64,000 nt of DNA from Cyanidioschyzon merolae. Its lineage: Eukaryota. This document shows, piece by piece, positions 1 to 47,740 of the stretch. The position numbers were made by a program, and so were the translations under genes. Every line of letters starts with the position of its first letter. Positions within the stretch are counted from its first letter, which is position 1. The stretch lies in assembly GCA_000091205.1 (NCBI GenBank), contig AP006497.2, one strand, 5' to 3'. The notes below the pieces were generated by a model that made no database searches, had not been told where the DNA came from, and worked only from the letters and a program-made list of their open reading frames with translations.

Positions 1-797
1 TTGGTTATGCCAGAATCATCATGGGACAAGTTGACCCAGCCATCGGCTTTGACATGATAAACGTTAATGTAGCCGCCGCTGTAAGCATCTCGGTGGGTTG
101 CGTGGAAGATAGCGCGTCGGCCGAGCTCCGCAGCCTCAGCTGCATCCATGTCCCAGCGATAGAACTGGTCCAGAACTCCGTAAGCAAATGTTGAACCTGA
201 CCCGACTGAGAATCGTGTCCCCCGTAAACGAACACCATCGCTATCGACGTAGAAAAGCTGCGGGCCGGTTTTATCCCAGCCCGCAATCATCGTGCCCATG
301 GACAATCCCATGCCCTTGTATTCGTAAACGATATTGGCAAGAAGCTTGGATGCAGCGGCGACTGAGATCCGTTCCCGGTGCTGCAACTCGTGTAGACGAC
401 ATCGCATTCCGAGATAGCGCTCCCAGAATGAGCAGTCGGCCGCGCCGCCCGCCATGGTGCCCAACAGATATGGATTGATCTCGATGATTTTCTTCACGGT
501 ACCAGATCCAATGTATTGGCCCATAGACGCTCTCGAGTCGACGGCCACAATAATCCCATCGCGGAAGACAAACGCTAAAGTGGTTGTCCCGTGCAAAAAC
601 TTCACCAAGGAGCTGTTCTGTTCGTCCCGTAGAACGTCCCGCAACCTCGGTGCGATGCTTGCTCCGCGAGGAACTCGAACTCGCCCAAGACTCAGGTCCA
701 TGGGTGCAGCGGTGTTGTCACCGTCCGAGCTGGGGCATATGTCGCTCCCGCTGCACAACGAAAACGTCCGATCTAAAAACTCCAGCGGTGCGTACAT
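1..797 (-). CDS. PSMB5: 20S proteasome subunit beta type-5 (chymotrypsin-like catalytic subunit), N-terminal ~265 aa; the C-terminal end runs off the window start
   Basis: Minus-strand translation from the ATG near 797 gives a propeptide followed by the mature N-terminus [60 protein letters not shown]...[25 protein letters not shown]...[15 protein letters not shown]...[13 protein letters not shown]. This is near-canonical beta5/PRE2 in one continuous frame. The listed ORF 5..286 is its downstream continuation. Confidence 0.9.
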
Positions 798-2755
798 GAG
801 CGGAACAGGACGCTGAAACTTTGAGCTGTGAAGAGAACCGCGGTTTCCCTAACAAAGAACCGCCTGGTCGATGCAGAGCGCCGTTTGACCAGGAGTACAC
901 ACAGCAAAGCCAGTCAGAGAAGGGCCTCCAGAAGCGTCCCCGTGCGACAGTAAGGCGTGCCTCAGCCCGAGAACGGACGTGCGAAGTAGCTGCAAGTCTC
1001 CCGTGCTCACTTAAAGGAAACCTTCGGTTTTGTGCGTGGCAAGTCAATGGCCAAGCTGCTGAAGAACGAAGCAATCCTAACGGTGCGAGAACGTTGAACT
1101 GAGCCAGCCGCTCACGTCCACGCGAGAAACGCCTCGAGCCCGCGCAATACGCCTGAAACGTCGTGCCCGGCTTGCGGTTCAGCGCAGAAGCGCTGTCCAT
1201 ATTGGACCATTTTTGTACATAACTGCGCTTCAGCGTCGCTACACCCTTACCTGGAACACGGAACCGCTCGATATGTTTCTGAATTTTGATGTATTCGAAC
1301 TTTTTAGATGTGCAACATCGACATTCAAACTGCATCCGTGCGAGATTACGGATTCGTAGATACTTGTAAGGTGCTCGATCTTCTGCTGGGGTCGCTCTTT
1401 CGAATCGTCTCCGCGGGAATTCGTAATGTCTCTGAAATCAAGATGATTCGCAGAGTTATTGAACACGAGTTGGTAAAATAACTGATACAGGTATCCCATG
1501 CAAATGAACAAGTGCCATACCTTTTCCGTCCTTACTTGTACAACGCTCAAAACACGCATACACTCCGAGCTGTCTACATATCTGCATCAACGGAAATTTT
1601 GGACTCGACACTTTTCGCAGCTTGATTGACGAGGAATCATACTCCACTTTTTCGCATGAAGACTTTTCAAAAATTCATGCATAGAGTTCAATGAACTTGG
1701 CAAGTCGAGTATTCCATGCGGTCCAATAGACATATTCTGCTCTCCTAGTGGCTATCGAAGAGACGCCATTCCACGATAGCATCATGATCGGTCTCATCGG
1801 GCACCATCCTTGAGGCTCCCTGTCCTTTCTGTTTGTATGGGAAAGGATCTTGGACTCGGACCTCAGTCATTCCAGGCATCGCGTCCAATGGAGCATGTCT
1901 TGCCAGCTTGCATGAATCACGCGTACACAATTGCAAAGTTCTCGACATCGCCTTCCGCCTGGATGTTCCCTCCGGTACCTGTGCCACCACGGGCAGCTCC
2001 TCGTTCGACAAATCCTCTCTCTCGTACCGGACAGCGTACGCTCGCATATGCAGCAGACGTTGCACCCACTGGATGCCTTATCCAGAAGAGATCCGCTTTC
2101 CTAGGGTACCGCACTGAGCGCGAGAACGGGGCAGCGCCTCCCAGAGAGCCCCCTGGATCTGTCAAGCGTATGTAGCAAACGGTAGAGCAAGCGTACGCAA
2201 GCTACAAGGCGGCGTTCAGAGCATGAGCTGCGGCACGCATCCGGGAACACCCGGCGAGGTCCACGTTTCACTCCTGGAAAGCGCGCACGGCTGCCGCAGA
2301 TGATGATCATCAAAATGGCAAGCGAAGTATCGTTCGCAACGACCGCCCGTGCATGGAACGCGCGACCAAAGTTCGCGAGCTGCTACATCAGAACTTTCAT
2401 GCTGCTATCCACATGCTTCGGCTGCTGACAATAGAGCTGGAGGCGCTGCGCATACCACGCGAATGAAAGACGTAGCTGGTGGAGCAAGGAAAATCAAGCC
2501 GTCAGATACCTTGCCTCCATTGACTGTTGTTGACGACAATGGCAAGAAATCCTGACTTGAACGTGTACACTCGAGTCCGTATAGTGAAGCTCTTCCATTG
2601 TGGTCTGAAAATGACAAGTGCAAGGCAGAACTGTTCGTGTGCATCGGCAGTCGTGCGTTTACCCGCTGAGGCCGCCCGCGCCCAGCGTCCAGATCCGTCG
2701 AGCGATTCGTTTCCGTTCACAGCGTCTAGGGCTTGACCTTTAACGCTGTCTGTAT

Positions 2756-2844: not shown

Positions 2845-3687
2845 ATGTTTGTCACATGTTTACTCGTGTCCGGTTCGAGGCGTAAAGGAACCGCTAACTG
2901 TGCATTGAACTTGCACAGAGCACAAACGGCAACCTGGGCAGCCTCGCGAAGCACGCAGCAGTTGCAAGTGCAAGGTTGGCGGAAACCCGTCAAACCAGGG
3001 GCATGCCAGGTCCTAAACGCCCAGTTAACTGTCTTTCGAAATCCGAAAAGCGGAGGGCCCGGCGCTCAAGCGAGCCGCGAGCCGCCGTCATTCGCACAGG
3101 TCTTGCGTGAAATGGCGCCCACTGGAAAACTCGACGACTTTGTCGTTTACGACTCAGACGGAAAACAACACCAGTTGCTCGATGTTGTCGGGAGTTACGG
3201 ACCAGAAGATAAGGATATGAAAGCAACGTTAGTGATCTGGCCGCGGCACTTTGGCTGCGTGCTTTGTCGCCGCCTCGTGAAAGAGCTCGCCGCCCGTGAA
3301 CAAGCCTTTCGACAAGAGCGCAAGTGGCGGCTCATGGTGATAGGTTGCGGCACTCCGGAGCAAGCTGCCAAGTTCCGTACGGATGCAACGCTTGGGCCCT
3401 TACCAGCGAGCATTCCGGTATACACAGATCCGTTGCGTCGTTCGTATCTCGCACTACGTTTCCGACGCGGTATTCTGTCAACGTTCAACTTGCCTGCACT
3501 ACAGAACATCTTGGACAGTTTTCAGAAAGGCGAGCGTCAGCGCTGGGATATGATTCCTCCGGACGCGTTCCAACAGGGTGGTATTGCGCTCATTGAACGG
3601 GATACCGGGGCACTCTGGATGCTGTACCGTAGTCAGTACGCTGGCGATGCGCCCACTGCAGAGGACCTCCTGAATATAGAACTTTGA
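2845..3687 (+). CDS. Thioredoxin-fold protein of the PRXL2/SelU (AhpC-TSA-like) family; the true start is probably an internal Met (~3112, MAPTGKLDDF)
   Basis: ORF of 280 aa. The segment KATLVIWPRHFGCVLCRRLVKELA...RLMVIGCGTPEQAAKFRTDATLGPLPASIPVYTDPLRRSYLAL resembles the CxxC-containing PRXL2/FAM213-type redox fold. Assignment rests on remembered family features, not a search. Confidence 0.55.
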   Translation: MFVTCLLVSGSRRKGTANCALNLHRAQTATWAASRSTQQLQVQGWRKPVKPGACQVLNAQLTVFRNPKSGGPGAQASREPPSFAQVLREMAPTGKLDDFVVYDSDGKQHQLLDVVGSYGPEDKDMKATLVIWPRHFGCVLCRRLVKELAAREQAFRQERKWRLMVIGCGTPEQAAKFRTDATLGPLPASIPVYTDPLRRSYLALRFRRGILSTFNLPALQNILDSFQKGERQRWDMIPPDAFQQGGIALIERDTGALWMLYRSQYAGDAPTAEDLLNIEL

Positions 3688-4289
3688 TGCAAGCTGGGAT
3701 ATATTTTGCGCATATTCATGGAACCAAGGCTTGTCGCCTGTTCTGGCATGAAACTCTGGTGCATGATGCCGGCGCGCCAGAACGATTCACGTTTCGACGT
3801 ATGACTTGGTACCGGCCCGGACTCCCTGGCGGGCGCTACTCTTTGGTCACATGGACAGCGTGCCGGGCGAACAGAGCCATAGCAGGAGCCGAGTGTCCCT
3901 ATATGGCCGACGTGTCTGTGTTCAGATAAAACGAACCTGGGATTGTGTGACGCCCACGCAAGGTGCGAGGCACTGGCAGCGGCTGCTGCTTCGCCTTCAG
4001 GAAAGACGCCAGTCGAACAGAGCCTCGTGACCGGCGACGGCACGCGAACGTACGGTCGCAGGTTGCTGCAGCTCACACCCTCTGTTGACAGCGTTTGGCG
4101 GTCATGACGCGTGCCGTCGCAAAGCTTCAAATCGTTCGGGCAATTTTACCCAGCGAGCAGGACCCCACACAGGAGAAGCACCTGAGACATCGTTCACGTA
4201 CGGAATTGCGATCTGTTACCCACCCACGTGAAACTGCACCAGACTGTGCACCCAGACGCTGTCCGCTGCGTACCGTCGACGGGACAGCT

Positions 4290-5555
4290 TCAGTGTGAGG
4301 CCATTTTACGAGCGACCAATTCACGTGTTGCTTGCACTTCAGCGGTTAGTTTCCTGGAGGTATCGTCGTTTTGCGTACGCGATATGGTCAAGCCATCTGC
4401 GAGCCGGCGACGTATTCGTACCAGCACCCGAACCAAGCCAGAAATTGCCATGACGAGTACGGCAACGATGAGCAAAGTACGCATCAGGCGGAGCAGCGCT
4501 CGCTGATGCCTCGCAGCGCCACGGCTGGTATGCCCAGCGACATGCTCACGCAAGCCGAGTTCCAAGGTGTAGAGCTTGCGCCACCATTTGCCCGTAACAT
4601 AAAGATTTCGTGGTCGATTCGCATCCCAGGCAATCCCATTGAGCACTGCATCCGGATGTACGGGGTGCACCGGTGACGGGCCCTGCGCTGTTCGCTCCAG
4701 TGCCAGCACCGACAGGTTCAGTTCACCGACAAACAGCGCATGACGCTGACGCTCCAGACCCGCGCAAATATCCATAACAACGATGTTGCTTGAAAGCCAG
4801 ATATTTGCCCATAATTCGGGGAAGCGTTCCGGCCGATTTGCAGCTGGTCTCATGACGACCTCCAGTTCGTTCAGAGACGAGACCTGCTCTCCCGAGCAGG
4901 GATGGTGTAACGCGGGAAAGCTCGTGAGCCATGCTAGTGTCCGGGGATGTCGCACTGTAATGATGCTCGATCCGTTGCTCATGAGGAAGCAAGCTGGCTC
5001 CTCATCTCGTCGAAGACAGTGCTCCGAGTCGGAGCAGGTCCATTGCCGCAACGCACCCGGGCAGGCTGCCAGGTGGTCCCAGTGGACTGCAGCGAGACCC
5101 CAGGCACCCGAGGGCCCGTACGGAATGTCCTGCCCAAAACGGTATCGGAGCTCCGTGCGATCGAAGGTTAGGGCACGTCCAGCGCTCAAGGTCAAGACGA
5201 CGATAGCATCGTCGAAGGCGCGGTATGCAGCACCTTCGGCAAAGAGGCTAGCAGGTTCCACACGCGCTGTCTGTAGGACGCGACCTGTTGGTAGTTCAAC
5301 GTGTTGCAGCCTCGAACGAAAACGAAGCCCGCTCGACTCGTATAATCGACTGCTATTGATGGGGTCAACGAAGAGACCCTGCGTAAACGTAGTCTCGTCG
5401 TGTGGGAGTGCGTTTAAGACGCGAAAGGGAATAGCGTGTTGAAGGTAGCAGACGCGCTGAGCGTCTGGCGCCCAGGCCCGGTGCAGCACCGCTCCAGAGA
5501 CGACAGCTACGGCACTTGCGATGAACAGAAAGAGCGTGTGGAGTGGTCTGTGCAT
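4290..5555 (-). CDS. Glutaminyl-peptide cyclotransferase (plant/bacterial beta-propeller type) with N-terminal signal peptide and a C-terminal hydrophobic anchor
   Basis: ORF of 421 aa. Family motifs are present: HDETTFTQGL, LYESSGLRFRSRLQHVELPTGRV, LFAEGAAY, NGIAWDANRPRNLYVTGKWWRKLYTLEL. The N-terminus MHRPLHTLFLFIASAVAVVSGA is signal-like. The C-terminus LLIVAVLVMAISGLVRVLV is TM-like. Confidence 0.75.
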   Translation of the reverse strand: MHRPLHTLFLFIASAVAVVSGAVLHRAWAPDAQRVCYLQHAIPFRVLNALPHDETTFTQGLFVDPINSSRLYESSGLRFRSRLQHVELPTGRVLQTARVEPASLFAEGAAYRAFDDAIVVLTLSAGRALTFDRTELRYRFGQDIPYGPSGAWGLAAVHWDHLAACPGALRQWTCSDSEHCLRRDEEPACFLMSNGSSIITVRHPRTLAWLTSFPALHHPCSGEQVSSLNELEVVMRPAANRPERFPELWANIWLSSNIVVMDICAGLERQRHALFVGELNLSVLALERTAQGPSPVHPVHPDAVLNGIAWDANRPRNLYVTGKWWRKLYTLELGLREHVAGHTSRGAARHQRALLRLMRTLLIVAVLVMAISGLVRVLVRIRRRLADGLTISRTQNDDTSRKLTAEVQATRELVARKMASH

Positions 5556-13128: not shown

Positions 13129-15726
13129 TCAAAATGGAGATTCTGCACCCGATAGGGACGAGACGGCGTACATGCCTTCCAAGTCGGAGGCGCTCCACGC
13201 ATCCATGTTGGCTTCGTCGTCCTCCGCCGAGAGACGCAGATATTCGAGTGCTGCGAAGCGATCCCAGTCCGTTAGGTCGGGGACTGCCCGCTCCTGTCTC
13301 AAGAGTGATGGATCTCGACTTTCGATCGCGATGAACTTGTTCAAGTTGAACAGGATATTGAAGAAATGGCTCTGCATGCGACTGGATCGTAAAGCTGAAC
13401 GCGTGATCACCGGTGGATCAAGATCCTTGCTGATCATGTCCAGCAACTGACAGAGAATATCCTCAAATGCAACTGGTTCGTGCCCCAGACACTCCATTCG
13501 ATGCAGTTGTTCTGAATAGAGCCAATCAACATCGTACAGGGTGATCTTTCCATCGCCGTCCGCATCAATGCAGCGAAACCAATAATCCAAGGCCGTCTCT
13601 GAATTCTTGTCTTCCTCGCTGAGGATAAACCAGATGAAATCCGTATAGCTCATGTAGCCTGGGCGTGCGCAGTCGAGAGGCCTTCCTCGTCCACTAAAGA
13701 TACAGTCAATGATCCGGTAGGTCAGGGCGTGCCCGTTGTAGCGCAGCAGATCCTCGCGGTCGATCATGAGATCATGATCTGTGTCCAATTCCCAGAATCG
13801 ACAGTAAATCACGTAGAAATGCTCGTAGCTGAAACAACTACGCTCCTGGTTGATGTCCTCTTGTTCGTCGACGCTTCGAAAAATGTCCAAGAGACGATGT
13901 CGGCGGATATCCGACAGATACGCCTGCCCATTCGGCCGGTTCAGATAGTAGAATATCCGTTCGATGACTGTCTCAGCGTAGCGATGCTGGAACTCTGGGG
14001 TGGACTGCAGAAACTGTAAGCCGGGATGCGTCGCCAGCAGCGCATCAATGAAGGGTCGAAAGTCGGAACCAACAAGGTATCGGCGCTCATGTGCTTGTCG
14101 GTCGGCTCGATCCCGTTGCCCGTCGAGATTCCGCCGATTCGATGTCCATGAAGCTGCTGCAGACCTGGGCGAGATGCTGCTTCTTGGTGAGGATACGCTG
14201 TGAGCGTCGCTCTCCGTACGCTCCTCGTTCGGAACCGATGCGTGATAGTCACGGGAGCGTTGGAGTGCGTGGAAGAGGCGAGCGTGTCGATCGTAGCCGG
14301 CACAGTCCTCAACATACCATTGCAAGAATATGGACTGATGGATACGCTCACCCGTTGCCCCCGGGATGCTGATCTCCTTTGCGCCCTTCTTGTTCGTACC
14401 TTCTACCTCCGAAGCTACGTTGGACGTTTCGAAGTGCTGTTGGCGTTGGAGCAAGCGCTCGAAAATGACCAGCGAGACAAAGCTCGGCAACCCGACAATG
14501 TCCATAATGAGTTCAACGACCTCGCGCTGGCTCAGTGCTCCGTCTTGGCAATCAAAAGCGGCCTGTATGGCCTGTTGTTCTTCTGCAGCCCGGATGACGT
14601 GTTCGTGCGCGCGCCCATCTGGATAGTAGAAGCGCGGGATCGTCTCCGCCTTTGCGAATGCGCACTCTGATGGTACAAAGAGCGCATTCACCGCTGAACG
14701 CTTGTTCAGACCTCCTGAATGGAGCGCATTTCGCTGGTGTGCTGTCTCCTCACATGCAGGTAATGGTGGCGAGAACGATGCTCCATTCTCAGTCGAAGAG
14801 CCATCGTGGCCTACTCCCGAGTCCATATATGATGCGATCTCATGGCAACGCTCCTCGGTATCGGATTGACCATGTGCCATCGCCGCATCGCTATCCTCAA
14901 CTTCGGACCAGATCCTAAAAACCTCATACTTTCTGATGAAATGTGATACTGGCGACTGTGGGCTCGACGTCAAAGAAGCTTCCTCTGTGGAGCTACTCCG
15001 TGAACGGCCTTGCCTTGCAACGCGTGCTTCGCCACCAGCGGGCGAGCCCGGAGTTTGGCTCAAGATGCGATAGAAGGCGCTGCGCGCCGCTCCGGCCGGG
15101 GAGTTTGGCGTAATGGTATCGGCATTCGTCGGACGCTTTGCGGTTGCCCCGTGCGATGCAGCATTACACGAAGCTGTCGGGCTCGAAAGTCGTTCCTGGC
15201 GGAGCATGGTAGGCTTCGGTGAACCAGCAGTCACAAGATCTTCGTCGGTCACCCTTCCCGTGACGTCCAGTTTCCCCAGGACCTGCTCCAACCAAGCGAG
15301 CGTTTCCGGGAGAAACAACCAACGCATAAAGAGGTACTCTAAGTGCCGTTTCGGCTCTAGCGCAATATCCGTGGCCGATAGCGTCACCAGCAGTTTTGGT
15401 GCGTCCATGGTGCCGGAAATCGCGTGCACACCGGACTCGTCGCCCCCGGTAACAAACACAGCTGTAACCTCTATACCAGACTCTATGGTCTGCTCAGAGG
15501 ACATTATTGAAGCGTTCCTACGTAGATCACTCGAGCTGCTGCAGCTCAGCGGAGTCAGGCCGGGGAGATGTGTGCCAAGCCTCACCCGCTTGCGTCTCAA
15601 GACACGAGGCGAGACTGGAACGCACCTTTCAACTTTACAACCATCGCCAGAAGCCGTTCGAAAGTCGAACGACGTCGGGCGTGTACAGTAGTGGCGGCGA
15701 ACGCGCCCTAGACAAATCGTCTCCAA
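13129..15726 (-). CDS. Protein phosphatase 2A regulatory subunit B'' (PR72/PR130-like, EF-hand)
   Basis: ORF of 865 aa. The C-terminal half matches the B'' family: DIFRSVDEQED, FSYEHFYVIYCRFWELDTDHDLMIDREDLLRYNGHALTYRIIDCIFSG, YWFRCIDADGDGKITLYDVDWLYSEQLHRMECLGHEPVAFEDILCQLLDMI. The true start is possibly the internal MSSEQTIESG (~15507), because the first 12 codons overlap the outer end of the inverted repeat. Confidence 0.85.
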   Translation of the reverse strand: METICLGRVRRHYCTRPTSFDFRTASGDGCKVERCVPVSPRVLRRKRVRLGTHLPGLTPLSCSSSSDLRRNASIMSSEQTIESGIEVTAVFVTGGDESGVHAISGTMDAPKLLVTLSATDIALEPKRHLEYLFMRWLFLPETLAWLEQVLGKLDVTGRVTDEDLVTAGSPKPTMLRQERLSSPTASCNAASHGATAKRPTNADTITPNSPAGAARSAFYRILSQTPGSPAGGEARVARQGRSRSSSTEEASLTSSPQSPVSHFIRKYEVFRIWSEVEDSDAAMAHGQSDTEERCHEIASYMDSGVGHDGSSTENGASFSPPLPACEETAHQRNALHSGGLNKRSAVNALFVPSECAFAKAETIPRFYYPDGRAHEHVIRAAEEQQAIQAAFDCQDGALSQREVVELIMDIVGLPSFVSLVIFERLLQRQQHFETSNVASEVEGTNKKGAKEISIPGATGERIHQSIFLQWYVEDCAGYDRHARLFHALQRSRDYHASVPNEERTESDAHSVSSPRSSISPRSAAASWTSNRRNLDGQRDRADRQAHERRYLVGSDFRPFIDALLATHPGLQFLQSTPEFQHRYAETVIERIFYYLNRPNGQAYLSDIRRHRLLDIFRSVDEQEDINQERSCFSYEHFYVIYCRFWELDTDHDLMIDREDLLRYNGHALTYRIIDCIFSGRGRPLDCARPGYMSYTDFIWFILSEEDKNSETALDYWFRCIDADGDGKITLYDVDWLYSEQLHRMECLGHEPVAFEDILCQLLDMISKDLDPPVITRSALRSSRMQSHFFNILFNLNKFIAIESRDPSLLRQERAVPDLTDWDRFAALEYLRLSAEDDEANMDAWSASDLEGMYAVSSLSGAESPF

Positions 15727-18195
15727 TTGCTGTGTAGACGCCTTCCCGTCTTTTTGGAGCGGCCGCCAACTACTGCTTCCAACTTTTTCTCATATAGTTC
15801 GACCTTGAGAGGTTGTCCAACAAAGTTCACTCTTGTCAACGCTGGAGGTCTCGTCTCCAGCGCCGCACATCTCCTTATATTGATGGCGGCGTTAAAGTCT
15901 CGGTTCACAAACTCCATACGTTTCGTGCCATCACTGGTTGTACTTACTGATGCAAGCAATCCTCGAACTTTCGCTCTCCTTTCCATTTGCCCTTCCGGCA
16001 GCGCTCCGTACTTTTTCGTATCCTTAGGGCTCCGCTGGCACTTTTCCATCTCCACCCTCTGGAGTGTACACCCCAGTTCATGGTGTGTATACGATGTTCG
16101 AAACTCATCTACAGGTATTGTTTCAAAACGCCGTGCGCGCTCCCTCTACGTTCTCGTCGTTGGAGCTGGCGTCGTCCTTTTTGGGTCTTCCATCGGCCTG
16201 CTCCGTACGCTACTATGAGCCTCTGACTTTTATCCTCCTTCAAGTCACTCAACTGATTGAGAAAGTTCGCGAACGCACGCTGCATCCCACCGTAGAGATT
16301 CATTCGCAAACGAGCCCACCGGGGCTTGGTATACTCCTCCCACAGCGCATCCCAATGGGCAACACGAACTTCCATGAATTTCCGAAAAGCATCAAGGTCC
16401 GCTCCTCGGCTCGTCACCTCGCTCATAGCTTCCAGGTGATCCTTCATTCCTGAATTCCATGTAACGATTTTCTTCCTCGCATTCACTATACCGGATTCTC
16501 GATAGTATCTCGCTCTCGAGAACCTCAACAGACGCATGTCTTTCTGACGAAAGTTGCCGTCAGCACCATCTTCCGCACGCTTGGGAGCAGCGATGGTGAT
16601 GATATTCGTGTTTCCGGGGTCCGCGCCAAGGACAAAGTCGTTATCCTGCACTTTCTGCATCGCAGGATCCGCCTCCTACTTTTCTTCATGCTTTGCCGCG
16701 TCAGCGACAAAGTCGTTATCCTGTACCTCCAGCGTCTCAGGATCCGCCTCCTTCCCATCTTCATCCTTCGTCACGTCAACGTTAAAGTCGTTATCCTGCA
16801 CTTTCTGCATCGTAGGACCCGCCTTCTTCTCATCTTCATGCTTCGTCACGTCAACGACAAGGTCGTTATGCTCCACCTCCTGCGTCGCAGGACCCGCCTC
16901 CTTCTTTGCTTCATCCTTCGTCACGGGCGCAGCCGAGGGCGGAACTGGCCGATCTTTCCTCAATGCCGATAGTGTACACAGATGGCTACTCCATCGGTTT
17001 CGATCAACCCAGTGAGTACCTTTTGTTTGCTGACTTTGAGAAGTTTGAAATTGAAGATATTCTTCCGGTACGCCTCCTGGTTTTCACCGGAGAACTCCTC
17101 CCTGCGAACATTGAACTCCAGACTGATCTCCTTCATAATGCCGTGAAGGATTCTGGAGTGGATGGACACAAAATCTGACCTTATGTTGCACATTGGAACC
17201 ACGTTGAAGCGCTTCCCCATTAGGAACGCCTTCCGTCTCTCCCGCTCTTCATTTCTTTCCTCACTCAGCTTCATCTCCGCTTTGCGTTCGAGCTCTCGGT
17301 CCAGAAACACGAAATATCGCAGGATGAGGCGATAATATCTTTCCTTATCTTTTTTCAACGCTGATATCTTTTCTGCTGGATTCGCCAGCCCCAAGACTGC
17401 ACAGTGCTCTTGTATAGCCGTACGGATTACAGAATCCTCATTCGTGCTCTCGTTTGACGCCTTCTTGTCAACGAATTCGATCTCATCTTCATGCTAGCGA
17501 TCTTTCGTGATGGCATCGATAATCGCCCATATTCCATTGCGAGATAGGCCCGGGTAGCGTGCAAACACGGCGCGTATCATGAAACGTTCGAGGTTCATAG
17601 TCAAATGCTTCTTCAGGTTCGTGAGCTACTTCATCGCCCCATAGTCGTAAATATTCGAGTCACCCTTGTATCGAGTACCATTGAATCTGTAAAAGGGATG
17701 TTTTTCGTGGAGGGTATGCACTAGCACATTTTCCTTCCGCGCTTTCTCTTTACGAAGCATCAGGTGTTGAATAAACGTCTTATCGATGGACTCGTCCGGA
17801 ATCTCGACCGTTTCGATCTGCGTCACGTCGCGATACATCTCTCTCGCCAAATGCATCAGTCCTGACGAAGCCTTGACAAGACTCTTGGAGTACGAGTCGA
17901 CACGGTTTTCGATTGCGTCTCGCAACTTTTCCCTGTACGGATCCTTGATATGTCCAAGAAGAATGGTTGTCGCCACCTTCTCGACGTACAGCCGTCTTTC
18001 TTGCCGCCTTCGACGTAGGGCCTCTCCCTTTAGGTCCTTCTTCGCTTCCTTGTCTTCTGGACTCGGCACAGTTTTCGTTTTTTTCTGGTAGTCGGCGACA
18101 CTGAGCCTCCAGGATCGTCGGCTTGCTGTTTCATAGCTTTTTTGTTTCTTTGAAAAACAACGCTCTTTGAAGGCTTCTGTTACATACAGCGACAA
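15708..18195 (-). CDS. TnpB/Fanzor-like RuvC-fold nuclease, copy 1. It has the same 4-segment structure (17626-18195, 16960-17394, 16109-16963, 15708-16055), plus 3 extra in-frame 25-aa repeat units before RuvC-I
   Basis: The ADPGNTNII motif has its Asp at ~16619-16621. The [10 protein letters not shown] motif has its Asp at 15897-15899. Segment translations are ~98% identical to copy 2. The same TAG codons and frameshift positions are present. Confidence 0.65.
16625..16925 (-). repeat. 4 tandem units of 75 bp, in frame, encoding 25-aa repeats ([25 protein letters not shown] and variants) just upstream of the RuvC-I motif of nuclease copy 1; copy 2 has a single unit (23871-23945)
   Basis: Minus-strand ORF 16676..16963 shows [25 protein letters not shown] / [25 protein letters not shown] / [25 protein letters not shown] / AAKHEEK...[18 protein letters not shown]. 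Confidence 0.85.
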
Positions 18196-18399
18196 AACGC
18201 TTGACTAGACTTGTTTGAGGTTTGAACCACAAATGAATTAGAAAACTACACTTTGCTACGACCTGAACGGATATCCAATGTTTTACAGCTGAACAACACG
18301 TTACTGATGCCCACGACAGGGACCTTTACCACAATGAACGGAGGGGCGGAGGCAGTAGCAGCAGAAAATATTGACGATAATTCTGAGTAGTTATCCGCT

Positions 18400-21300
18400 G
18401 CTCCCGAAACAACGCTGCAGCTTCGGGCGCAAAATCTGGGTCCATCCTCGAGCTCGGGCTCAGTTTTACCTCCTTCTTCGGTTTCTACCTCAACTCTGGA
18501 AACAATCTCGGCGGATATTTTGGAAGACGGCTGGCGGTATGTTCGCGTTCGAAGCTGGAACGAACGACTTGCCCGCCTATGTGTTTGGGGAGCGGATACA
18601 AAGCCGCTGAAAGGTTGGTTCGTAGAGTATCCCCAGTGGTTGAGGGGAGCTTCATGTGTCCGGCAAGATAAAGGTCGCATTCGAGTCGACCTTGACTAAT
18701 GTACATCTGATTCTACGCTAGTGCGGCGCCAAGCACTCAATGAACGACTGGAATGCGGGAGGCGCTGGTGGCATGTACGCTCACACACCCCGTGGAGGGT
18801 GCATCTAAATTGACGACGTATCTCTGGAGTACCGCAGCGCTATTCCTATTCCGTTACGCGCTACAAATCGGTAGGTATTGCATCATGGAATATTTGTGGT
18901 GTAGCCTCGAAACTAGAATAAGAGATATCGAATTACTAGTAGAGTAAAGAGGATCAGATACAACTGAAGGACTCTACAAAAGGAAAAGCGATCCAACGAG
19001 ATACGGAGAAGGAGACACAGGAACCTCATGATCCACCTAGATGCAAAATAACCAGAGAAAGCAGCTCAGGAAAGAGCCCGAAGAAGAAGAAGACCAACAA
19101 GAAAAGACAGAAGAATAGAGAGAAGAACTCCCAAGCGAGCCCATCATGAGTGATCCCCCGAAAGAGCACCCCAGCAGGAACTCAAGAAAGCCGTCGCCAA
19201 ACCGAGTCACCTACTCACAGCGCTGAAGATCCGAAAAGCCGTGCGTACAAATCTTTAGACCAATTGGCACGCGAGTTTGTAGATGGGAATCAGAAGACTG
19301 CCAGAGAACTGGGACGGCTGGCACCAGAACGCAACAGTTGGAAACCGCAGTACCTGAAACGACGTATCAAAACTCGGATTGATGAATGCCACCGACTCAA
19401 TAAGATCCTCAACCGCACCGCCATACGCGCCAACGCCGGAGACAAGGAAGCGAAGGCAGCGCTACCGGCGCTACAGGCGCAACATGAGGAAGCTATCAAA
19501 AGAAAGAAGAAACTTTCCAGAGAAGACAAACGAGAGGATCGAAACCGCAAAATCGCCTCTCTGATGGAATCTACGCTAGAGAGCACCAACGAAGATGAGA
19601 CCTGGCGCTATATTCGATCGAGACTCGACCCACCGAAAAGTGCTTGGGGCTCACACCAACTGTTAAAAAGAAGAGCTGAGGACGGAGAGTGCCTCAGTGA
19701 ATGAGGCCTGGATAGACCACGGGAGAGAGCTGCATGAAGACGCAACTGGGAACTGCCAAGACCGAATCTATTGGCATCAGTATGCTGCAGAACTACCGCG
19801 CCTCAACCCGGTACCGGAATGGAACGACCCAATCTTCTGGCCTGAATCTGTTCGGACCCTGCTATGCTCAAGCAACCGCAAAACACCTGGCATCGACGGT
19901 ATCGCGACGGAGTGGATGAAACTGGCGACCCCAAAAGACGGGACAACAGGGACACCATCGATACCAGATGAACCTGACACAATCTTAGGCAAACGCCCTC
20001 TGGAGCTCATCCAACGCATGTTTGAAGAAGCATACATCCCTGATGTATGTAGGAGTGTTGAGGTCGTATCGATCCTCAAAAAGGACTCCCACATACACAG
20101 ACATGAACAACTACCGGACTATTCGCCTCATCCCGTCAATCATGAAGCTACTTTGCGCCATGCTCACGAACCGGATCCAGAGGGGCCTCGAGGAGCGCAA
20201 GTTCTTCGCTTCAGAACAGGCTGGATTCCGGAGTCGCGAGGAGTGCATGAGCCATGTCCTGACCCTCATCGGAGTGGCGCAACGTCGCTCCATTAGCGAC
20301 CAACAACCAGCTTACGTATGCTTCATCGACTTTCAAAAGGCCTTTGACACGGTCCCGCACGAGGCTCCATTTCTCAAGATGGAACGCGCCGGAGTCTCCG
20401 AAAAGTGCTTGGCGTTCTTCAGTGCGCTCTATGCAGACTCGTGGATGCGCATCCGACTGGGCGACAGCTCAAGAACCCCTTCCAGAAGAATCCGCCGTGG
20501 ACTGCGACAGGGCGACCGCGCATCCCCGCTCCTTTTCAACATCTTCATCAACGATCTGCTGAACAACGGCAGACAATTCGTGGCTGAGGCGCCGTGGATA
20601 GACTGTGGAGATGTCCGGTGAGGAGCCCTCAGATAGGAACCGCCTCGCAGGCCTTCTATTCGCGGACGATGTCGTGCTGTTGGCACCCACCCCGGAAACG
20701 CTTGCGGCTAGCATGGAACAAGTCAGCGCCTGGACCGATCGCTGGGAGATGAGCATAGGAGCATCGAAGTGCGGCGTCATGGTCATCCATGGAGACTCGC
20801 AGAGCATTCGCAATCGCTCGTGGCGGTTGCAGAATCAGGAAATTCCGGTCGTGGAAAAATATCGCTACCTGGGGGTCGGTCTCATGCTGACGCTCGACGA
20901 AAAGGCACACATCGACGAGATGATCGCCAAGATGCATAGAGGTACAGCGATCGCACGCCCATTCCTATCCGATCCCTCTATCTGCATAGCAATCCGTACG
21001 AGGGCACTAAGGATGTGTATCATCCAGCCTGCGACCTGGGGTGCTGAATTGTGCGGCATAAAGCACAAAAATGCCTCGCGTCTGCAGACAGCCGCCAACA
21101 GGGCAATGCGACTCGTTCGTGTTGGATGCTCAGTGCAGAGCAGAGCAACCAACCCGTTGACACTCGGACCTGAACTCCAAACACCATCGACAGAGGCGAT
21201 AGCAGCAGGCTTCCAGGCACGTGTGTGGGCCAAAGGGCCCATCATGCGCACCTGGTTCAGTCGGAGTTTCATGCAGACCCCAACGCACTCCAAGAAATCT

Positions 21301-22400
21301 TGGATGGAATCGACGCAGATTTGGTTGGAGCGCCACTTAGGCGAAAACACGCTCCCCAATCATTCCCCAGGAATATAGAAGGCTCCCGCCGCCTCTAGCG
21401 AACGGTCCGAACAACCATATGGGAATTTAGACAAGGTACCAGTCGCGCAAGTAACGCCGGCTTGACCCTATCCGGAACTACACCCTAGCATACACATGCA
21501 AGTACTGGTAGGGGGTGCTGGAATTCCCGGGACTTGCTCGAGGTACCCAGTGGCTCGCCAAAATCCGCGTTGGTGGCTTCCGGCTGGCAGCACCGGCTCT
21601 AAGCCGGAAAGGAGCACTGGAATCGCACTGGGAATCACACTGTCCCTGCTGTGGAGACGAGAGCCCCCGAGAAGCTGACGCATTTACTGTTACAGTGCCC
21701 GCGCTAGAATCAGGAGCGCAGCGAGCTCCTTGAAGGACAGCAGCAGCTGGGCATCAGCGTGATAGTGGAAGGCCGGACACTCATTCTGAGTGTAGCACTG
21801 GCAACTGATGGTCCGCTAACCGAGCCGCAGCGCTCGTTAGTGGCGAACAAACTCACATTCTACCTTCTAAGCGGCAGGTCCAACGAATCGGATGAGCACA
21901 CGGGTTTAGTGCTCTTTGTGCCTGCCTACTGGCGGGTGTCAAGCACAAACCCGCATTGCCGACCGACAACACATTCAATGCATGATCACGAAGGAGAGAG
22001 GCGGCTCCCAGGATTCATCCTAACAGCCAAGTTTCTCCAGCGTGTCGTGCAGCGAAGGTAAGACTGCATTTGCAGACTCGCTGAGCATATATCGACGAAG
22101 AGACCCGATTCTACGTCGGGTGAACCACGCCTCGAGCCGACGCCCTCTGTGGTATAGCAACGCCGTTCTGTCTCTATGAGCTATCTGCTCCAGCATTTAA
22201 GGTGCAAAGGCGAATACGGAGCGGCAGCTACTAGGCACACACGATAGGACGTATGAAACGACCAGAATATCTGAGATGAAGCATAGGTAATCTAACTTGG
22301 AGGCAGGTGCTTCATCATGGACGCTTTCCCGAAAGCCATTATCCATTCCAAATTCTGGGATCCATGGTCAATGGAAACGTCTTGTCAATAACAAAAAAAC
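18400..22400 (+). mobile_element. Degenerate, probably 5'-truncated non-LTR retrotransposon (LINE, L1/CR1-like RT) occupying the centre of the palindrome
   Basis: RT motifs lie in three different frames: KTPGIDGIATEWMK (19697..20296), YRTIRLIPSIMKLL...QAGFRSREE...FIDFQKAFDTVPHE...GLRQGDRASPLLFNIFINDL (20022..20621), LLFADDVVLLA (20605..21378). A C-terminal Cys/His motif HCPCCGDES...H is at ~21640-21700. An A-rich tail-like stretch aataacaaaaaaacaaa is at ~22385-22400. No endonuclease domain is recognisable upstream. Confidence 0.8.
19697..21378 (+). pseudogene. LINE reverse transcriptase ORF2 remnant with at least two frameshifts
   Basis: RT domains 0-7 are spread over ORFs 19697..20296, 20022..20621 and 20605..21378 in different frames. 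Confidence 0.8.
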
Positions 22401-22482
22401 AAATTGCGCTCGGTGGGCGCACCTCGGAGATCGGGAAGTCAACTGACACGACGCGCATGCCGCCGTAGAAGGGTAACGCGAT

Positions 22483-24880
22483 TGGGATCAGTAACGTGTT
22501 GTTCAGCTGTAAAACATTGGATATCCGTTCAGGTCGTAGCAAAGTGTAGTTTTCTAATTCATTTGTGGTTCAAACCTCAAACAAGTCTAGTCAAGCGTTT
22601 TGTCGCTGTATGTAACAGAAGCCTTCAAAGAGCGTTGTTTTTCAAAGAAACAAAAAAGCTATGAAACAGCAAGCCGACGATCCTGGAGGCTCAGTGTCGC
22701 CGACTACCAGAAAAAAACGAAAACTGTGCCGGGTCCAGAAGACAAGGAATCGAAGAAGGACCTAAAGGGAGAGGCCCTACGTCGAAGGCGGCAAGAAAGA
22801 CGGCTGTACGACGAGAAGGTGGCGACAACCATTCTTCTTGGACATATCAAGGATCCGTACAGGGAAAAGTTGCGAGACGCAATCGAAAACCGTGTCGACT
22901 CGTACTCCAAGAGTCTTGTCAAGGCTTCGTCAGGACTGATGCATTTGGCGAGAGAGATGTATCGCGACGTGACGCAGATCGAAACGGTCGAGATTCCGGA
23001 CGAGTCCATCGATAAGACGTTTATTCAACACCTGATGCTTCGTAAAGAGAAAGCGCGGAAGGAAAATGTGCTAGTGCATACCCTCCACGAAAAACATCCC
23101 TTTTACAGATTCAATGGTACTCGATACAAGGGTGACTCGAATATTTACGACTATGGGGCGATGAAGTAGCTCACGAACCTGAAGAACCATTTGACTATGA
23201 ACCTCGAACGTTTCATGATACGCGCCGTGTTTGCACGCTACCCGGGCCTATCTCGCAATGGAATATGGGCGATTATCGATGCCATCACGAAAGATCGCTA
23301 GCATGAAGATGAGATCGAATTCGTTGACAAGAAGGCGTCAAACGAGAGCACGAATGAGGATTCTGTAATCCGTACGGCTATACAAGAGCACTGTGCAGTC
23401 TTGGGGCTGGCGAATCCAGCAGAAAAGATATCAGCGTTGGAAAAAGATAAGGAAAGATATTATCGCCTCATCCTGCGATATTTCGTGTTTCTGGACCGAG
23501 AGCTCGAACGGAAAGCGGAGATGAAGCTGAGTGAGGAAAGAAATGAAGAGCGGGAGAGACGGAAGGCGTTCCCAATGGGGAAGCGCTTCAACGTGGCTCC
23601 AATGTGCAACATAAGGTCAGATTTTGTGTCCATCCACTCCAGAATCCTTCACGGCATTATGAAGGAGATCAGTCTGGAGTTCAATGTTCGCAGGGAGGAG
23701 TTCTCCGGTGAAAACCAGGAGGCGTACCGGAAGAATATCTTCAATTTCAAACTTCTCAAAGTCAGCAAACAAAAGGTATTCACTGGGTTGATCGAAATCG
23801 ATGGAGTAGCCATCTGTGTACACTATCGGCATTGAGGAAAGATCGGCCAGTTCCGCCCTCGGCTGCGCCCGTGACGAAGGATGAAGCAAAGAAGGAGGCG
23901 GGTCCTGCGACGCAGGAGGTGGAGCATAACGACCTTGTCGTTGACGCGGACCCCGGAAACACGAATATCATCACCATCGCTGCTCCCAAGCGTGCGGAAG
24001 ATGGTGCTGACGGCAACTTTCGTCAGAAAGACATGTGTCTGTTGAGGTTCTCGAGAGCGAGGTACTGCCGAGAATCCGGTATAGTAAATGCGAGGAAGAA
24101 AATCGTTACATGGAATTCAGGAATGAAGGATCACCTGGAAGCTATGAGCGAGGTGACGAGCCGAGGAGCGGACCTTGATGCTTTTCGGAAATTCATGGAA
24201 GTTCGTGTTGCCCATTGGGATGCGCTGTGGGAGGAGTATACCAAGCCCCGGTGGGCTCGTTTGCGAATGAATCTCTACGGTGGGATGCAGCGTGCGTTCG
24301 CGAACTTTCTCAATCAGTTGAGTGACTTGAAGGAGGATAAAAGTCAGAGGCTCATAGTAGCGTACGGAGCAGGCCGATGGAAGACCCAAAAAGGACGACG
24401 CCAGCTCCAACGACGAGAACGTAGAGGGAGCGCGCACGGCGTTTTGAAACAATACCTGTAGATGAGTTTCGAACATCGTATACACACCATGAACTGGGGT
24501 GTACACTCCAGAGGGTGGAGATGGAAAAGTGCCAGCGGAGCCCTGAGGATACGAAAAAGTACGGAGCGCTGCCGGAAGGGCAAATGGAAAGGAGAGCGAA
24601 AGTTCGAGGATTGCTTGCATCAGTAAGTACAACCAGTGATGGCACGAAACGTATGGAGTTTGTGAACCGAGACTTTAACGCCGCCATCAATATAAGGAGA
24701 TGTGCGGTGCTGGAGACGAGACCTCCAGCGTTGACAAGAGTGAACTTTGTTGGACAACCTCTCAAAGTCGAACTATATGAGAAAAAGTTGGAAGCAGTAG
24801 TTGGCGGCCGCTCCAAAAAGACGGGAAGGCGTCTACACAGCAGTTGGAGACGATTTGTCTAGGGCGCGTTCGCCGCCACC
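22483..24880. repeat. Right arm of the large inverted repeat (contains nuclease copy 2 on the plus strand)
   Basis: Reverse-complement match to 15690-18310, read directly. Confidence 0.9.
22600..24862 (+). CDS. TnpB/Fanzor-like RuvC-fold nuclease, copy 2. The reading frame is split into 4 ORF segments (22600-23169, 23401-23835, 23832-24461, 24515-24862; ~657 aa total), so it is either an intron-containing gene or a pseudogene
   Basis: A RuvC-I-like motif [16 protein letters not shown] has its Asp at 23949-23951. A RuvC-III-like motif [15 protein letters not shown] has its Asp at 24671-24673; D-x-N-A-A-x-N-I is the TnpB/Cas12/Fanzor signature. The RuvC-II region reads [12 protein letters not shown] (no Glu), as reported for Fanzor1-type proteins. 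No CxxC...CxxC zinc ribbon is seen. Segments 1-2 are joined in frame through two TAG codons (23167, ~23296). Segments 2-3 differ by a frameshift. Segments 3-4 could be joined by a 56-nt GT..AG intron (24458-24513). A basic NLS-like stretch RRRRQERR lies near the N-terminus. There is no in-frame ATG at the N-terminal end. Confidence 0.65.
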
Positions 24881-25163
24881 GCTGAAAACTGCGGGAAGCA
24901 ACGTCTTTCTTTTGAAAGAGGTTTGTTGTTGCTGGTGGCGGTTGTGCATCTTTATATCCTGGATCGTGTCAGCGATCTCACACGGTACAAAAGTTGAAGG
25001 GGTGCAACACACGTACAGCTTCTCTGTCTGGGCACGTGCAACGCTCGAATCCTGGCGGCGCTCTCGAGACTGATAGAGAAAGCCCGCTTGTGAGGTATGC
25101 TCGGCGCTTGTTTGATTCGCGCTCTTACCCTGCGCAGGAAGCCGTGAACAAAATACTGCTGGC

Positions 25164-30084: not shown

Positions 30085-30548
30085 GTTCACATTCCGCTGA
30101 TAAAGCGCTTTGCTGAGTACGAGACGTTCTCGTGATGAGAGCGCAGCCCCGGTGCTTGTCTCTCGCAGTGATCACGCCCATGGCAGAGCACTGGGAACCC
30201 CCGCATTGCACTCATAAAGCGCTTTGCTGAGTACGAGACGTTCTCGTGATGAGAGCGCAGCCCCGGTGCTTGTCTCTCGCAGTGATCACGCCCATGGCAG
30301 AGCACTGGGAACCCCCGCATTGCACTCATAAAGCGCTTTGCTGAGTACGAGACGTTCTCGTGATGAGAGCGCAGCCCCGGTGCTTGTCTCTCGCAGTGAT
30401 CACGCCCATGGCAGAGCACTGGGAACCCCCGCATTCCACTCATAACGCGCTTTGCTGAGTACGAGACGTTCTCGTGATGAGAGCGCAGCCCCGGTGCTTG
30501 TCTCTCGCAGTGATCACGCCCATGGCAGAGCACTAGGAACCGGAACGA
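30085..30548. repeat. Tandem repeat, 4 copies of a 114-115 bp unit
   Basis: The unit ...aaagcgctttgctgagtacgagacgttctcgtgatgagagcgcagccccggtgcttgtctctcgcagtgatcacgcccatggcagagcactgggaacccccgcattgcactcat recurs at 30102, 30216, 30330 and 30444. Read on the minus strand (ORF 30087..30770) it encodes 38-aa repeats. Confidence 0.95.
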
Positions 30549-31900
30549 GTGCGTGCACTGCGATTCAGCTTGAGAATGAGGAGATCCTCGATACCATGTG
30601 CTAAACGAATACCTGGTGGACAGCAAATATCCCGACCATATCGCCGCTCTTCGAGTTGCATACGCGCCACACTGATTGCTAAAAACGGAGGCGGTATCAC
30701 GTCGCGCTCCACGAACACATCGATGGCTCGTACGATCCAGTTCACGAACCCGAGTTGAAGGTCGGTGCATTCCTCCAGATCGGTCGGACGAACTGGCAGC
30801 CGCATTCGAAAGCCACGGGGGTGCAGTACACCCGATACATCAACGGCATAAAAACCCGCATGAATAGGCAGCATGTTCACCGGATCGATTTGGAGCTGTC
30901 GTAGAACAGCCCGATAACAGTGGTCGATCGGTTGTGCTGATCCGTTTTGCACAGCGCTTAATGCCGCTTCATCAGTGTAAACAATGAGGTTATAGAGTGG
31001 TCCGCAAAACGTCAGTGAGTTACGTCGATTCCGAGCGCAGCGGTGGTAAACATGCAGGTCCGCATAGAGCGGCTCCAACGGCACACTAAGATAGATGTCA
31101 GGCTGTTGATAGCGTTGAATCACCGCAGGGATCATGGTTTTCGAGTGTCTGTTTCGGGACCTTGCCGAGCTGGCACGGTTCGGTCGCAGCATCCCCGTCA
31201 GGCTAGTGAGTGCGGGGTGTAGAGGCGCCAACCACTGAGGCCCCGGTGACTGCTCCACTGCTGCAGACGCTTTCTGCACAGTCGCTGCCTGAGCTGCCTG
31301 CCGGTGCTGTTGGTTGCGTAGGCCCCAGCGCGACTCTTGGAGTGATCTAGCAACGCGACTGGCAACCTGAGGCTGCACGCGAGCCGAGGCTAGCGCCGCT
31401 CGTTGCACAGCGATCCAGCCCTGCATGTGCCTCTCGGAACAACCGGCGTTTGTTGAGCTATACCAACAGCTGGACGTGAAACTCAAACTTCGAAACTGAA
31501 GTATAAACGCTCTGAAAGAAAACAACGCCAACGCTGCAGCGGCAGGTGCGCTGTCGTCTCTCGGAACACTGAAACCGATGATTGTATGCCGCTGAATGCC
31601 ATGGTTGTGGGCAAAGCAGCGAATTCTGGAGAACCTGTACCAGAACACCCTATTTATCTTGGTTTCCCCAAAGGCATGGAACAAAGGGAAAGTATCGAGT
31701 AGAGTGGAGACAAGTCCCGCAACGTCTGTGTGCTGTGCCTGCTGGCATGACCTGTACCAGAACACGCTATTTATCTTGGTTTCCCCAAAGGCATGGAACA
31801 AAGGGAAAGTATCGAGTAGAGTGGAGACAAGTCCCGCAACGACTGTGTGCTGTGCCTGCTGGCATGAAGGAGAACGGCATGACGTGTCGGTGTCAGTCAC
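30533..31900 (-). CDS. Hypothetical 455-aa ORF whose N-terminus is built from the 117-bp repeats; C-terminal ~200 aa are globular-looking but the family was not recognised
   Basis: A long ORF in GC-rich DNA. The C-terminal segment ...PIDHCYRAVLRQLQIDPVNMLPIHAGFYAVDVSGVLHPRGFRMRLPVRPTDLEECTDLQLGFVNWIVRAIDVFVERD... has mixed composition, suggesting a real domain. Confidence 0.35.
   Translation of the reverse strand: MTDTDTSCRSPSCQQAQHTVVAGLVSTLLDTFPLFHAFGETKINSVFWYRSCQQAQHTDVAGLVSTLLDTFPLFHAFGETKINRVFWYRFSRIRCFAHNHGIQRHTIIGFSVPRDDSAPAAAALALFSFRAFILQFRSLSFTSSCWYSSTNAGCSERHMQGWIAVQRAALASARVQPQVASRVARSLQESRWGLRNQQHRQAAQAATVQKASAAVEQSPGPQWLAPLHPALTSLTGMLRPNRASSARSRNRHSKTMIPAVIQRYQQPDIYLSVPLEPLYADLHVYHRCARNRRNSLTFCGPLYNLIVYTDEAALSAVQNGSAQPIDHCYRAVLRQLQIDPVNMLPIHAGFYAVDVSGVLHPRGFRMRLPVRPTDLEECTDLQLGFVNWIVRAIDVFVERDVIPPPFLAISVARMQLEERRYGRDICCPPGIRLAHGIEDLLILKLNRSARTRSGS
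31634..31867. repeat. Tandem repeat, 2 copies of a 117-bp unit
   Basis: cctgtaccagaaca...ctgctggcatga recurs at 31634 and 31751. It is ORF-preserving in both the + (31596..32006) and - (30533..31900) frames. Confidence 0.9.
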
Positions 31901-47099: not shown

Positions 47100-47740
47100 A
47101 TGGAATGTTTTCCGTCGTGAAACGGAATGATCGATCGATCGTTCGAATTGATGAAGCCTTCAGCACAGTGACACACCGGGGCACATTTCGTATGCCTTCG
47201 GGAAACCGTTTTCCTTCAGGCAAGGTCCTCTCCCGATGGCATAAAGGAGGGGATTCAGTTTCAGAAATAAAAAACCCCAAAGAAAAGTTATGCACATCGA
47301 ATTCGAGTACTCTGGAGGGTCGTCACCCCCGGGTCCGACAAAACCAGAGCGAAAAGTTCTCTTCTAGCCTACCATCGAGCGAAGAAGAACAAATGACGAA
47401 GGAGACGAGGGAGAGTGGGACCTTGGCCAGAAAAAATGTGTATCTGACAGGACGGTGACGAGACGTAGTGTCACAGAGGGCACGAGTTCGAGGACTACTT
47501 GCATTCGTGAGTTCAACCAGAGGACACGAACGCAGGGACTCTGTGAACCAAGACTTGAACGCCGCCATGAATATCCGGAGACCTGCGGCGCTGAAGACAA
47601 GACCCGAAGCGCTGATGCCATTCAACTCTGTGGGGCACCCTCTCACACTCGAATATTGCACGGAGATGCTGAAGCCGATGGCGGGCGGCCGGTCGGAAAC
47701 GGCTTGGAGGCGTCTGTCTGGAGGTATATACGGATAACCT
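47100..47740 (+). pseudogene. Degenerate relic of the TnpB/Fanzor-like nuclease family (3' portion, copy 4)
   Basis: ORF 47468..47737 reads RARVRGLLAFVSSTRGHERRDSVNQDLNAAMNIRRPAALKTRPEAL...MAGGRSETAWRRLSGGIYG. This is homologous to copy 2's [48 protein letters not shown]...[21 protein letters not shown]. The antisense ORF 47323..47844 also matches antisense ORF 15727..16218. It is diverged and interrupted. Confidence 0.55.

Follow-up and report, generated by a model that had tools for sequence, protein, structure and literature searches.

The stretch of DNA analysed here (contig AP006497.2 of NCBI GenBank assembly GCA_000091205.1, Cyanidioschyzon merolae; 64,000 nucleotides, referred to below as the window) carries two inverted copies of a decayed gene that sequence comparison assigns to Fanzor1, i.e. 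a eukaryotic TnpB-like RNA-guided nuclease gene. The two copies differ in the number of 75-bp tandem units that they hold directly before the first catalytic motif. Inverted-repeat search and alignment delimit the near-identical interiors of Fanzor1 pseudogene copy 1 (arm 1, 15681-18311, minus strand) and copy 2 (arm 2, 22484-24889, plus strand), which show 97-99% complementarity. The global alignment of the arms contains about 20 substitutions over 2.4 kb (~99% identity), with a few more at the edges, and a sole gap of exactly 225 nt (16626-16850, i.e. 3 x 75). A preliminary description of the locus, which had named the repeat as the only substantial difference between the arms, is borne out on this point.

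The repeat array and the gene that contains it

Tandem Repeats Finder (TRF) reports the array of arm 1 at 16627-16925 with a period of 75, 4.0 copies, 80% matches and a score of 374, and gives a second reading of the same array with a period of 150 at 85%. Dissection in the coding register (minus strand) places the minisatellite of four 75-bp units at 16625-16924, with u1 at 16850-16924, u2 at 16775-16849, u3 at 16700-16774 and u4 at 16625-16699. Each of the first three units encodes 25 residues, and u4 encodes 24 plus an in-frame stop. This stop, a TAG at 16676-16678 (minus strand) found in arm 1 only, replaces a Lys of the homologues upon translation (HEEK*EA versus HEEKKEA). Arm 2 holds a single unit (23871-23945, plus strand) that is the same as u1 at 75 of 75 bases and is fused to GCG GAC CCC (A-D-P), the sequence shared at this junction being the dinucleotide CG only. 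The count of four units against one that had been reported earlier is thus reproduced by both TRF and unit dissection. Pairwise identity among u1-u4 is 77-84%, and an identity above 95% among u2-u4 is excluded by the sequence. The array of arm 1 spans 100 residues, of which 29 are acidic and 13 basic (net charge -16), and it is of low hydropathy and lies on the disordered side of the charge-hydropathy boundary. In an AlphaFold2 model of the homologue P0001 (50-sequence alignment; mean predicted local distance difference test score, pLDDT, 41.5; predicted template modelling score, pTM, 0.28) the repeat region has the lowest pLDDT (about 22-26), although the model is poor overall and is given little weight.

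The array of arm 1 is also present outside the reference assembly. Two contigs of independent JGI metagenome assemblies (L082 and L083, samples 3300050366 and 3300050370) align without gaps to window positions 17039-13109 and 17034-15854, respectively, at 99.5-99.6% identity, and each covers the whole four-unit array and carries the TAG of u4, which in L082 ends the open reading frame (ORF) called at 2-364. The longer contig, L082, also spans the unique flank with its EF-hand gene. Its gap-free recovery in two independent metagenome assemblies shows that the four units of arm 1 were not produced by assembly.

The concatenated ORF pieces, used as a protein query, found 50 relatives that are 55-75% identical and come without exception from JGI or ENA metagenomes, and a HMMER scan of 1.84 billion representatives returned 1,826. 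In a 47-sequence alignment the Asp of DPG (D484) and the Glu of DEFRT (E656) are invariant, and the Asp of RD.NAA.NI (D725) is nearly so. Profile A2, built from 47 diverse relatives, matched the PDB structures of PpFz1 (9cf0, 4.5e-21), SpuFz1 (8gkh, 7.6e-12) and GtFz1 (9cer, 5.9e-7), and its matches extend from the WED hairpin (TDG) across RuvC-I, RuvC-II and RuvC-III. The D, E and D of the family align with 8gkh chain positions 777, 935 and 1000, i.e. with D383, E541 and D606 of SpuFz1, which are its catalytic residues (PMC11423790), and the array therefore abuts RuvC-I, as had been described. It is followed by one codon and then by the Asp of ADPGNTN that aligns with SpuFz1 D383 (arm 1, 16604-16624, minus strand; arm 2, 23946-23966, plus strand), and the last residues of the unit, DFVVG, correspond to the strand leading into the catalytic Asp of ADPG. 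The acidic 25-residue unit thereby makes up the stretch from the final WED strand to the first strand of RuvC. The RuvC-II motif VDEFRTS lies at 16092-16112 (minus strand) in arm 1 and at 24458-24478 (plus strand) in arm 2, and RuvC-III at 15876-15905 (minus strand) and 24665-24694 (plus strand). Both window arms retain the catalytic D-E-D codons.

The narrow profile A1 gave no Fanzor match against the PDB, only a chance coiled-coil hit, and Pfam scans of the four window ORF pieces, close homologues and ten distant representatives gave no family match. Precomputed matches to Pfam DUF8286 (PF26935) exist for most homologues, one of them flagged 'weak', and none appears in the local Pfam scan. 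The CxxC...CxxC zinc finger of the TNB/NUC domain was also sought, and the family consensus between RuvC-II and RuvC-III (THHELGC...EKC...RGLLALVST; window 24479-24664) has only two Cys along with two His, none of them forming a CxxC pair. The region still aligns to the solved Fanzor1 proteins.

Both window copies are pseudogenes with no intact Fanzor1 ORF. Compared with the intact homologue P0001, the arms have in common three in-frame stops (DYGAMK*, KDR*HEDE and TTRT*RERARRF) and two 1-nt frameshifts (after CVHY and at TQKG/TTPAPTT). The stops are at the ends of the peptides 17626-17646, 17485-17508 and 16137-16160 in arm 1 (minus strand), and at 23167-23169, within 23287-23310 and within 24410-24433 in arm 2 (plus strand). 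The frameshifts are near 16964-16968 and at 16175 in arm 1 (minus strand) and at 23827-23831 and 24395 in arm 2 (plus strand). The TAG of u4 is one stop extra to arm 1. A reading of the ORF breaks as introns was rejected, since the homologues read through all of these sites and the lesions are single stops and 1-nt shifts. The statement that the repeat preserves the reading frame is thus right as to length, the difference being three whole 75-bp units, but u4 has an in-frame stop and neither arm is open; likewise, the array does not lie inside the core of a working nuclease gene. As both copies were already dead, the change in unit number is without effect on any protein here, and for the window a difference in two dead transposon genes is of little consequence.

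Unit number across the family

The wider family was surveyed in 82 related copies from hot-spring metagenomes, comprising 59 distinct arrays. The number of units per copy ranges from one to six: one unit is present in 6 copies, two in 24, three in 19, four in 20, five in 10 and six in 3. Array length is divisible by 3 in 58 of the 59 distinct arrays, some of which deviate from n x 75 by -12, -9, -3 or +3, and 10 distinct arrays contain stops. Orthologous loci also differ between samples. L046 and L041 have three and five units, respectively, within 4-kb flanks that are 99.1-99.4% identical on both sides, and L062 and L078 have three and two. The preliminary description had called the array unusual, which it is not within this family, and the polymorphism in unit number between genomic copies that it raised is present. 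The repeat, being head-to-tail, a multiple of 3 in length and variable between copies and alleles, is a coding minisatellite, i.e. a variable-number tandem repeat (VNTR). Coding minisatellites inside ORFs, e.g. those of fungal adhesin genes, have units that are multiples of 3, vary in unit number through slippage or unequal recombination and differ among alleles; unlike these, the present repeat is inside a transposon-encoded nuclease, the copies of which are for the most part pseudogenes in decay.

The median identity between adjacent units is 0.79, and only 9 of 123 pairs reach 0.90 or more. Most arrays are therefore old, with occasional recent duplications, as in L041 and L050, where near-identical units are found. 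The 59 arrays have a conserved layout in which a first unit (VTKDE...QEVEDNDLVVD) is followed by middle units and by a last unit that stands before ADPG. About four-fifths of them end in ...NDFVVG before ADPG; the array of arm 1 comes close to this (DNDFVLG), unlike that of arm 2. For u4, each of the eight best matches (89-92%) is the last unit of another copy, and the best matches of u1 are first and middle units.

At the protein level the spacing from TDG to DPG in the cyanidialean subfamily takes the stepwise values 51, 76, 101, 126, 151 and 176 residues, and in distant relatives it is mostly 26-55 residues. An open frame of at least 550 aa together with all three RuvC motifs is retained by about 5 of 70 distinct metagenome copies. 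These open-frame copies are 574-778 aa long and have two to five units, the 778-aa member (L003) having four.

Origin of the 225-bp difference

The 99% identity of the arms stops inside the Fanzor1 element and not at its ends. On the 3' side of the 99% zone both copies run on for ~55 nt of family-typical sequence, with different variants of a terminal hairpin. On the 5' side arm 2 runs into the canonical 5' region of the family, whereas arm 1 is without ~290 nt of this region and is joined instead to a repeated segment that also adjoins at least 10 other Fanzor copies. These mosaic ends favour gene conversion of two insertions over a simple inverted duplication, and the arms are most likely two separate head-to-head insertions, with interiors made alike by gene conversion between the inverted copies. 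The 225-bp heterology may predate this homogenisation, and the dating of the repeat difference to a time after an arm duplication is not supported, the identity ending inside the element and the indel possibly being the earlier event. The idea that the arms are the terminal inverted repeat of a single composite element was rejected, as the spacer homology does not extend in L014 and the inverted pair of L003 is only 85% identical and has a different spacer.

The L003 pair (93-1657, minus strand, and 2934-4485, plus strand; 1.3 kb apart) is another head-to-head pair of the family and, at ~85% identity, indicates that such pairs recur without homogenisation.

We consider, with a probability of about 0.8, that the 225-bp difference reflects unit-number variation in an old, family-wide coding minisatellite, with arm 2 in the contracted state. 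Identity among the units of arm 1 is 77-84%, against ~99% between the arms, and the four-unit array is therefore far older than the similarity of the arms. Since u4 is closest to last units elsewhere in the family and the array follows the canonical layout, arm 1 represents the old state and arm 2 the derived one. Arm 1 has kept a long-diverged array that opens with a first-type unit, continues with two middle units and closes with a canonical last one, and in arm 2 a contraction of the array would have left the first-type unit fused in register to ADPG. Replication slippage, unequal exchange or a gene-conversion tract ending at a unit boundary are the likely mechanisms. If u1 had been copied by conversion onto the one unit of arm 2, the tract would naturally have come to a halt at the unit boundary, where homology ends, and this would explain why only CG is shared at the junction. 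Some observations sit less well with a contraction in arm 2. The junction is exactly at a unit boundary with 2 nt shared, which is an unlikely crossover for in-register unequal exchange, and an arm 2-type junction is not unique, occurring also in a few other copies (L019, P0003/4/6). Exact-protein look-ups with the 209-aa ORF, its 196-aa GTG version, the 113-aa 3' ORF and the 144-aa upstream ORF did not find the arm 2 junction in any independent assembly. The contraction may have come before or after the homogenisation, and a sibling copy may have taken part.

The preliminary description had proposed the reverse, namely that copy 1 expanded from one unit to four after the arm duplication and inside a functional nuclease gene. 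Such an event would account for a single unit equal to u1 in an arm that is otherwise ~99% identical, and recent unit duplications do exist elsewhere in the family, e.g. in L041 and L050. New units should, however, nearly equal their template, which is not the case for u1-u4; u4 has its nearest kin among last units from copies diverged by 15-20%, the period-150 substructure (85%) suggests that pairs of units were duplicated long ago, and the gene is dead in both arms, so that we give a recent expansion almost no credence. An assembly artefact, with arm 2 collapsed or arm 1 spuriously expanded and the true unit numbers equal, is also very improbable. It would be in keeping with the lack of independent coverage of the arm 2 junction and with the breaking of contigs from other samples at the edges of the repeat family; metagenome contigs that bear the right-flank gene end at the arm edge. 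Against it stand the gap-free recovery of the arm 1 array in two metagenome assemblies, with linkage to the unique EF-hand flank, and the genuine unit-number variation elsewhere in the family. Moreover, units that are ~80% alike are hardly prone to collapse, and the unit of arm 2 is a clean u1 and no chimera.

A third explanation starts from a single-unit ancestor, from which arm 1 would have regained u2-u4 by gene conversion from a close four-unit sibling, the same event reverting five private substitutions just downstream. It draws on a cluster of five transitions in arm 2 (24036-24086, plus strand), 90-140 nt downstream of the arm 2 junction, where comparison with ~80 family copies shows the consensus base in arm 1 and a private base in arm 2 at five of five sites; the remaining differences between the arms are evenly divided in polarity. 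Other signs of gene conversion in the region also fit. A donor at the typical divergence of 15-20% would nevertheless have left many more differences in the flanks, and u1 together with 72-90 nt on each side of the array shows no differences between the arms. Two events, an old loss and a recent regain, would be needed where one suffices, and we regard this course as unlikely; even if it were taken, u2-u4 would be old units and not a new expansion. Contraction in arm 2 remains the reading that we prefer, and the comparison illustrates that a difference of four repeats versus one between near-identical copies need not mean expansion.

Related systems, element ends and neighbouring sequence

The family resembles most closely CMe-1A among described families, a likeness drawn from the published description. 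CMe-1A is the Fanzor1 family of Cyanidioschyzon merolae, with ~150 copies that are each ~80% identical to the consensus (Bao & Jurka 2013, PMC3627910); it is ~3 kb long, has no terminal inverted repeats and has few intact ORFs (PMC3627910). The present family has 405 relatives in hot-spring metagenome contigs, those aligned being 78-86% identical to the arms, and three full loci showed no long inverted termini. It shares with CMe-1A the Cyanidiophyceae host, the many ~80% copies, the ~3-kb length, the absence of terminal inverted repeats, the undetermined target-site duplications, variable 5' regions shared with another repeat, and the small number of copies with an intact Fanzor1 ORF. An internal tandem repeat is not described for CMe-1A, the word 'tandem' being absent from the text of PMC3627910, and in the Fanzor literature searched none is described inside a Fanzor protein.

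The family matches SpuFz1 (8gkh), PpFz1 (9cf0) and GtFz1 (9cer) from the WED hairpin to RuvC-III, and in all of them a segment of 35-50 residues separates the WED hairpin from RuvC-I. Unlike in these three proteins, the cyanidialean segment consists of a 25-residue acidic module present one to six times, there is no evident canonical CxxC...CxxC, and the window copies are pseudogenes. A lineage-specific insertion within or beside the RuvC domain of Fanzor1 has a parallel in the FRI of PpFz1, a folded, cyclophilin-binding domain of ~100 aa (Xu et al. 2024, PMC11423790), whereas the cyanidialean insertion is a variable-number acidic repeat of low hydropathy. In SpuFz1, DNA unwinding starts at Y345, in the WED loop just upstream (PMC10432273). 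We offer, as a speculative and rather doubtful proposal, that the acidic repeat of intact members could be a selected, length-tunable module between the WED unwinding loop and the catalytic Asp, i.e. a DNA-mimicking or autoinhibitory linker, whose unit number would modulate nuclease activity or target access. If so, variation in unit number would be functional and not neutral slippage. At the level of the family, a Fanzor1 lineage tolerates 25-150 extra acidic residues directly before the RuvC-I Asp. This site could be a natural permissive insertion point for the engineering of Fanzor editors, and the array offers a convenient polymorphic marker for cyanidialean populations.

The 3'-terminal hairpin of copy 1 is of variant A (ACGTCGTTCGA-CTT-TCGAACGGC; 15653-15675, minus strand), outside the 99% arm and inside the family element. 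That of copy 2 is of the other family variant, B (AACGTCTTTC-TTTT-GAAAGAGGTT; 24900-24923, plus strand). In the family the ~30 nt after the stop codon are highly conserved, and the hairpin follows directly after the conserved ...GCCGCCACTACTGTACAC. The stem variants ACGTCGTTCGA/TCGAACGGCGT and AACGTTTTTC/GAAAGGCGTT both keep the pairing, about 35 of 45 copies fold into variant A or B, and both variants occur at many loci. The hairpin may be a feature of the right end or of an omegaRNA; RNAalifold gave no consensus structure for the 3' end, and Rfam at its gathering threshold gave no match in the window.

The spacer between the arms (18312-22483, plus strand) is repeated DNA in which reverse-transcriptase ORFs of the RVT_1 type, broken by frameshifts, lie at 20022-20621 and 20605-21378. 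At least 10 other Fanzor copies have the left part of the spacer (18306-19992) joined antisense to their 5' end by the same junction. The right part (19663-22483) is found in sense orientation upstream of at least four others, namely the Fanzor copies in L037, L036, L003 and L002. A retroelement is thus recurrently associated with Fanzor copies. A module of ~270 bp (window 22104-22390) recurs, mostly inverted, within ~1 kb upstream of ~20 other copies of the family, at 67-79% identity. Two more fragments of the Fanzor1 family, short, degraded and 72-76% identical to the arm, lie at 51342-51642 (minus strand) and 47476-47653 (plus strand).

On the other side of arm 1, an 865-aa EF-hand (PP2A B''-like) ORF is listed from a TTG at 15726, a start that falls within the 3' end of Fanzor copy 1. 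The opening ~40 'codons' of this ORF (RVRRHYCTRPTSFDFRTA...; window 15600-15726, minus strand) are the conserved 3' terminus of the element, and the same peptide-like string is found at the ends of P0038 and P0041. As the start of this ORF is element terminus, the true start of the EF-hand gene must be further downstream.

Two other tandem repeats, one of 114 bp with 3.9 copies at 99% (30100-30541) and one of 117 bp with 2.0 copies at 98% (31633-31867), lie under or near the ORF at 30533-31900 (minus strand). The neighbouring genes are eukaryotic and encode the EF-hand protein, a RING protein, Rit1, a protein kinase and SRP54. For the SRP54 of the window, Logan assemblies alone gave an exact match. 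The nearest named relative is Cyanidiococcus yangmingshanensis, whose SRP54 is 88% identical, and identity to the protein of Cyanidium caldarium is 67%; the host is therefore a cyanidialean red alga.

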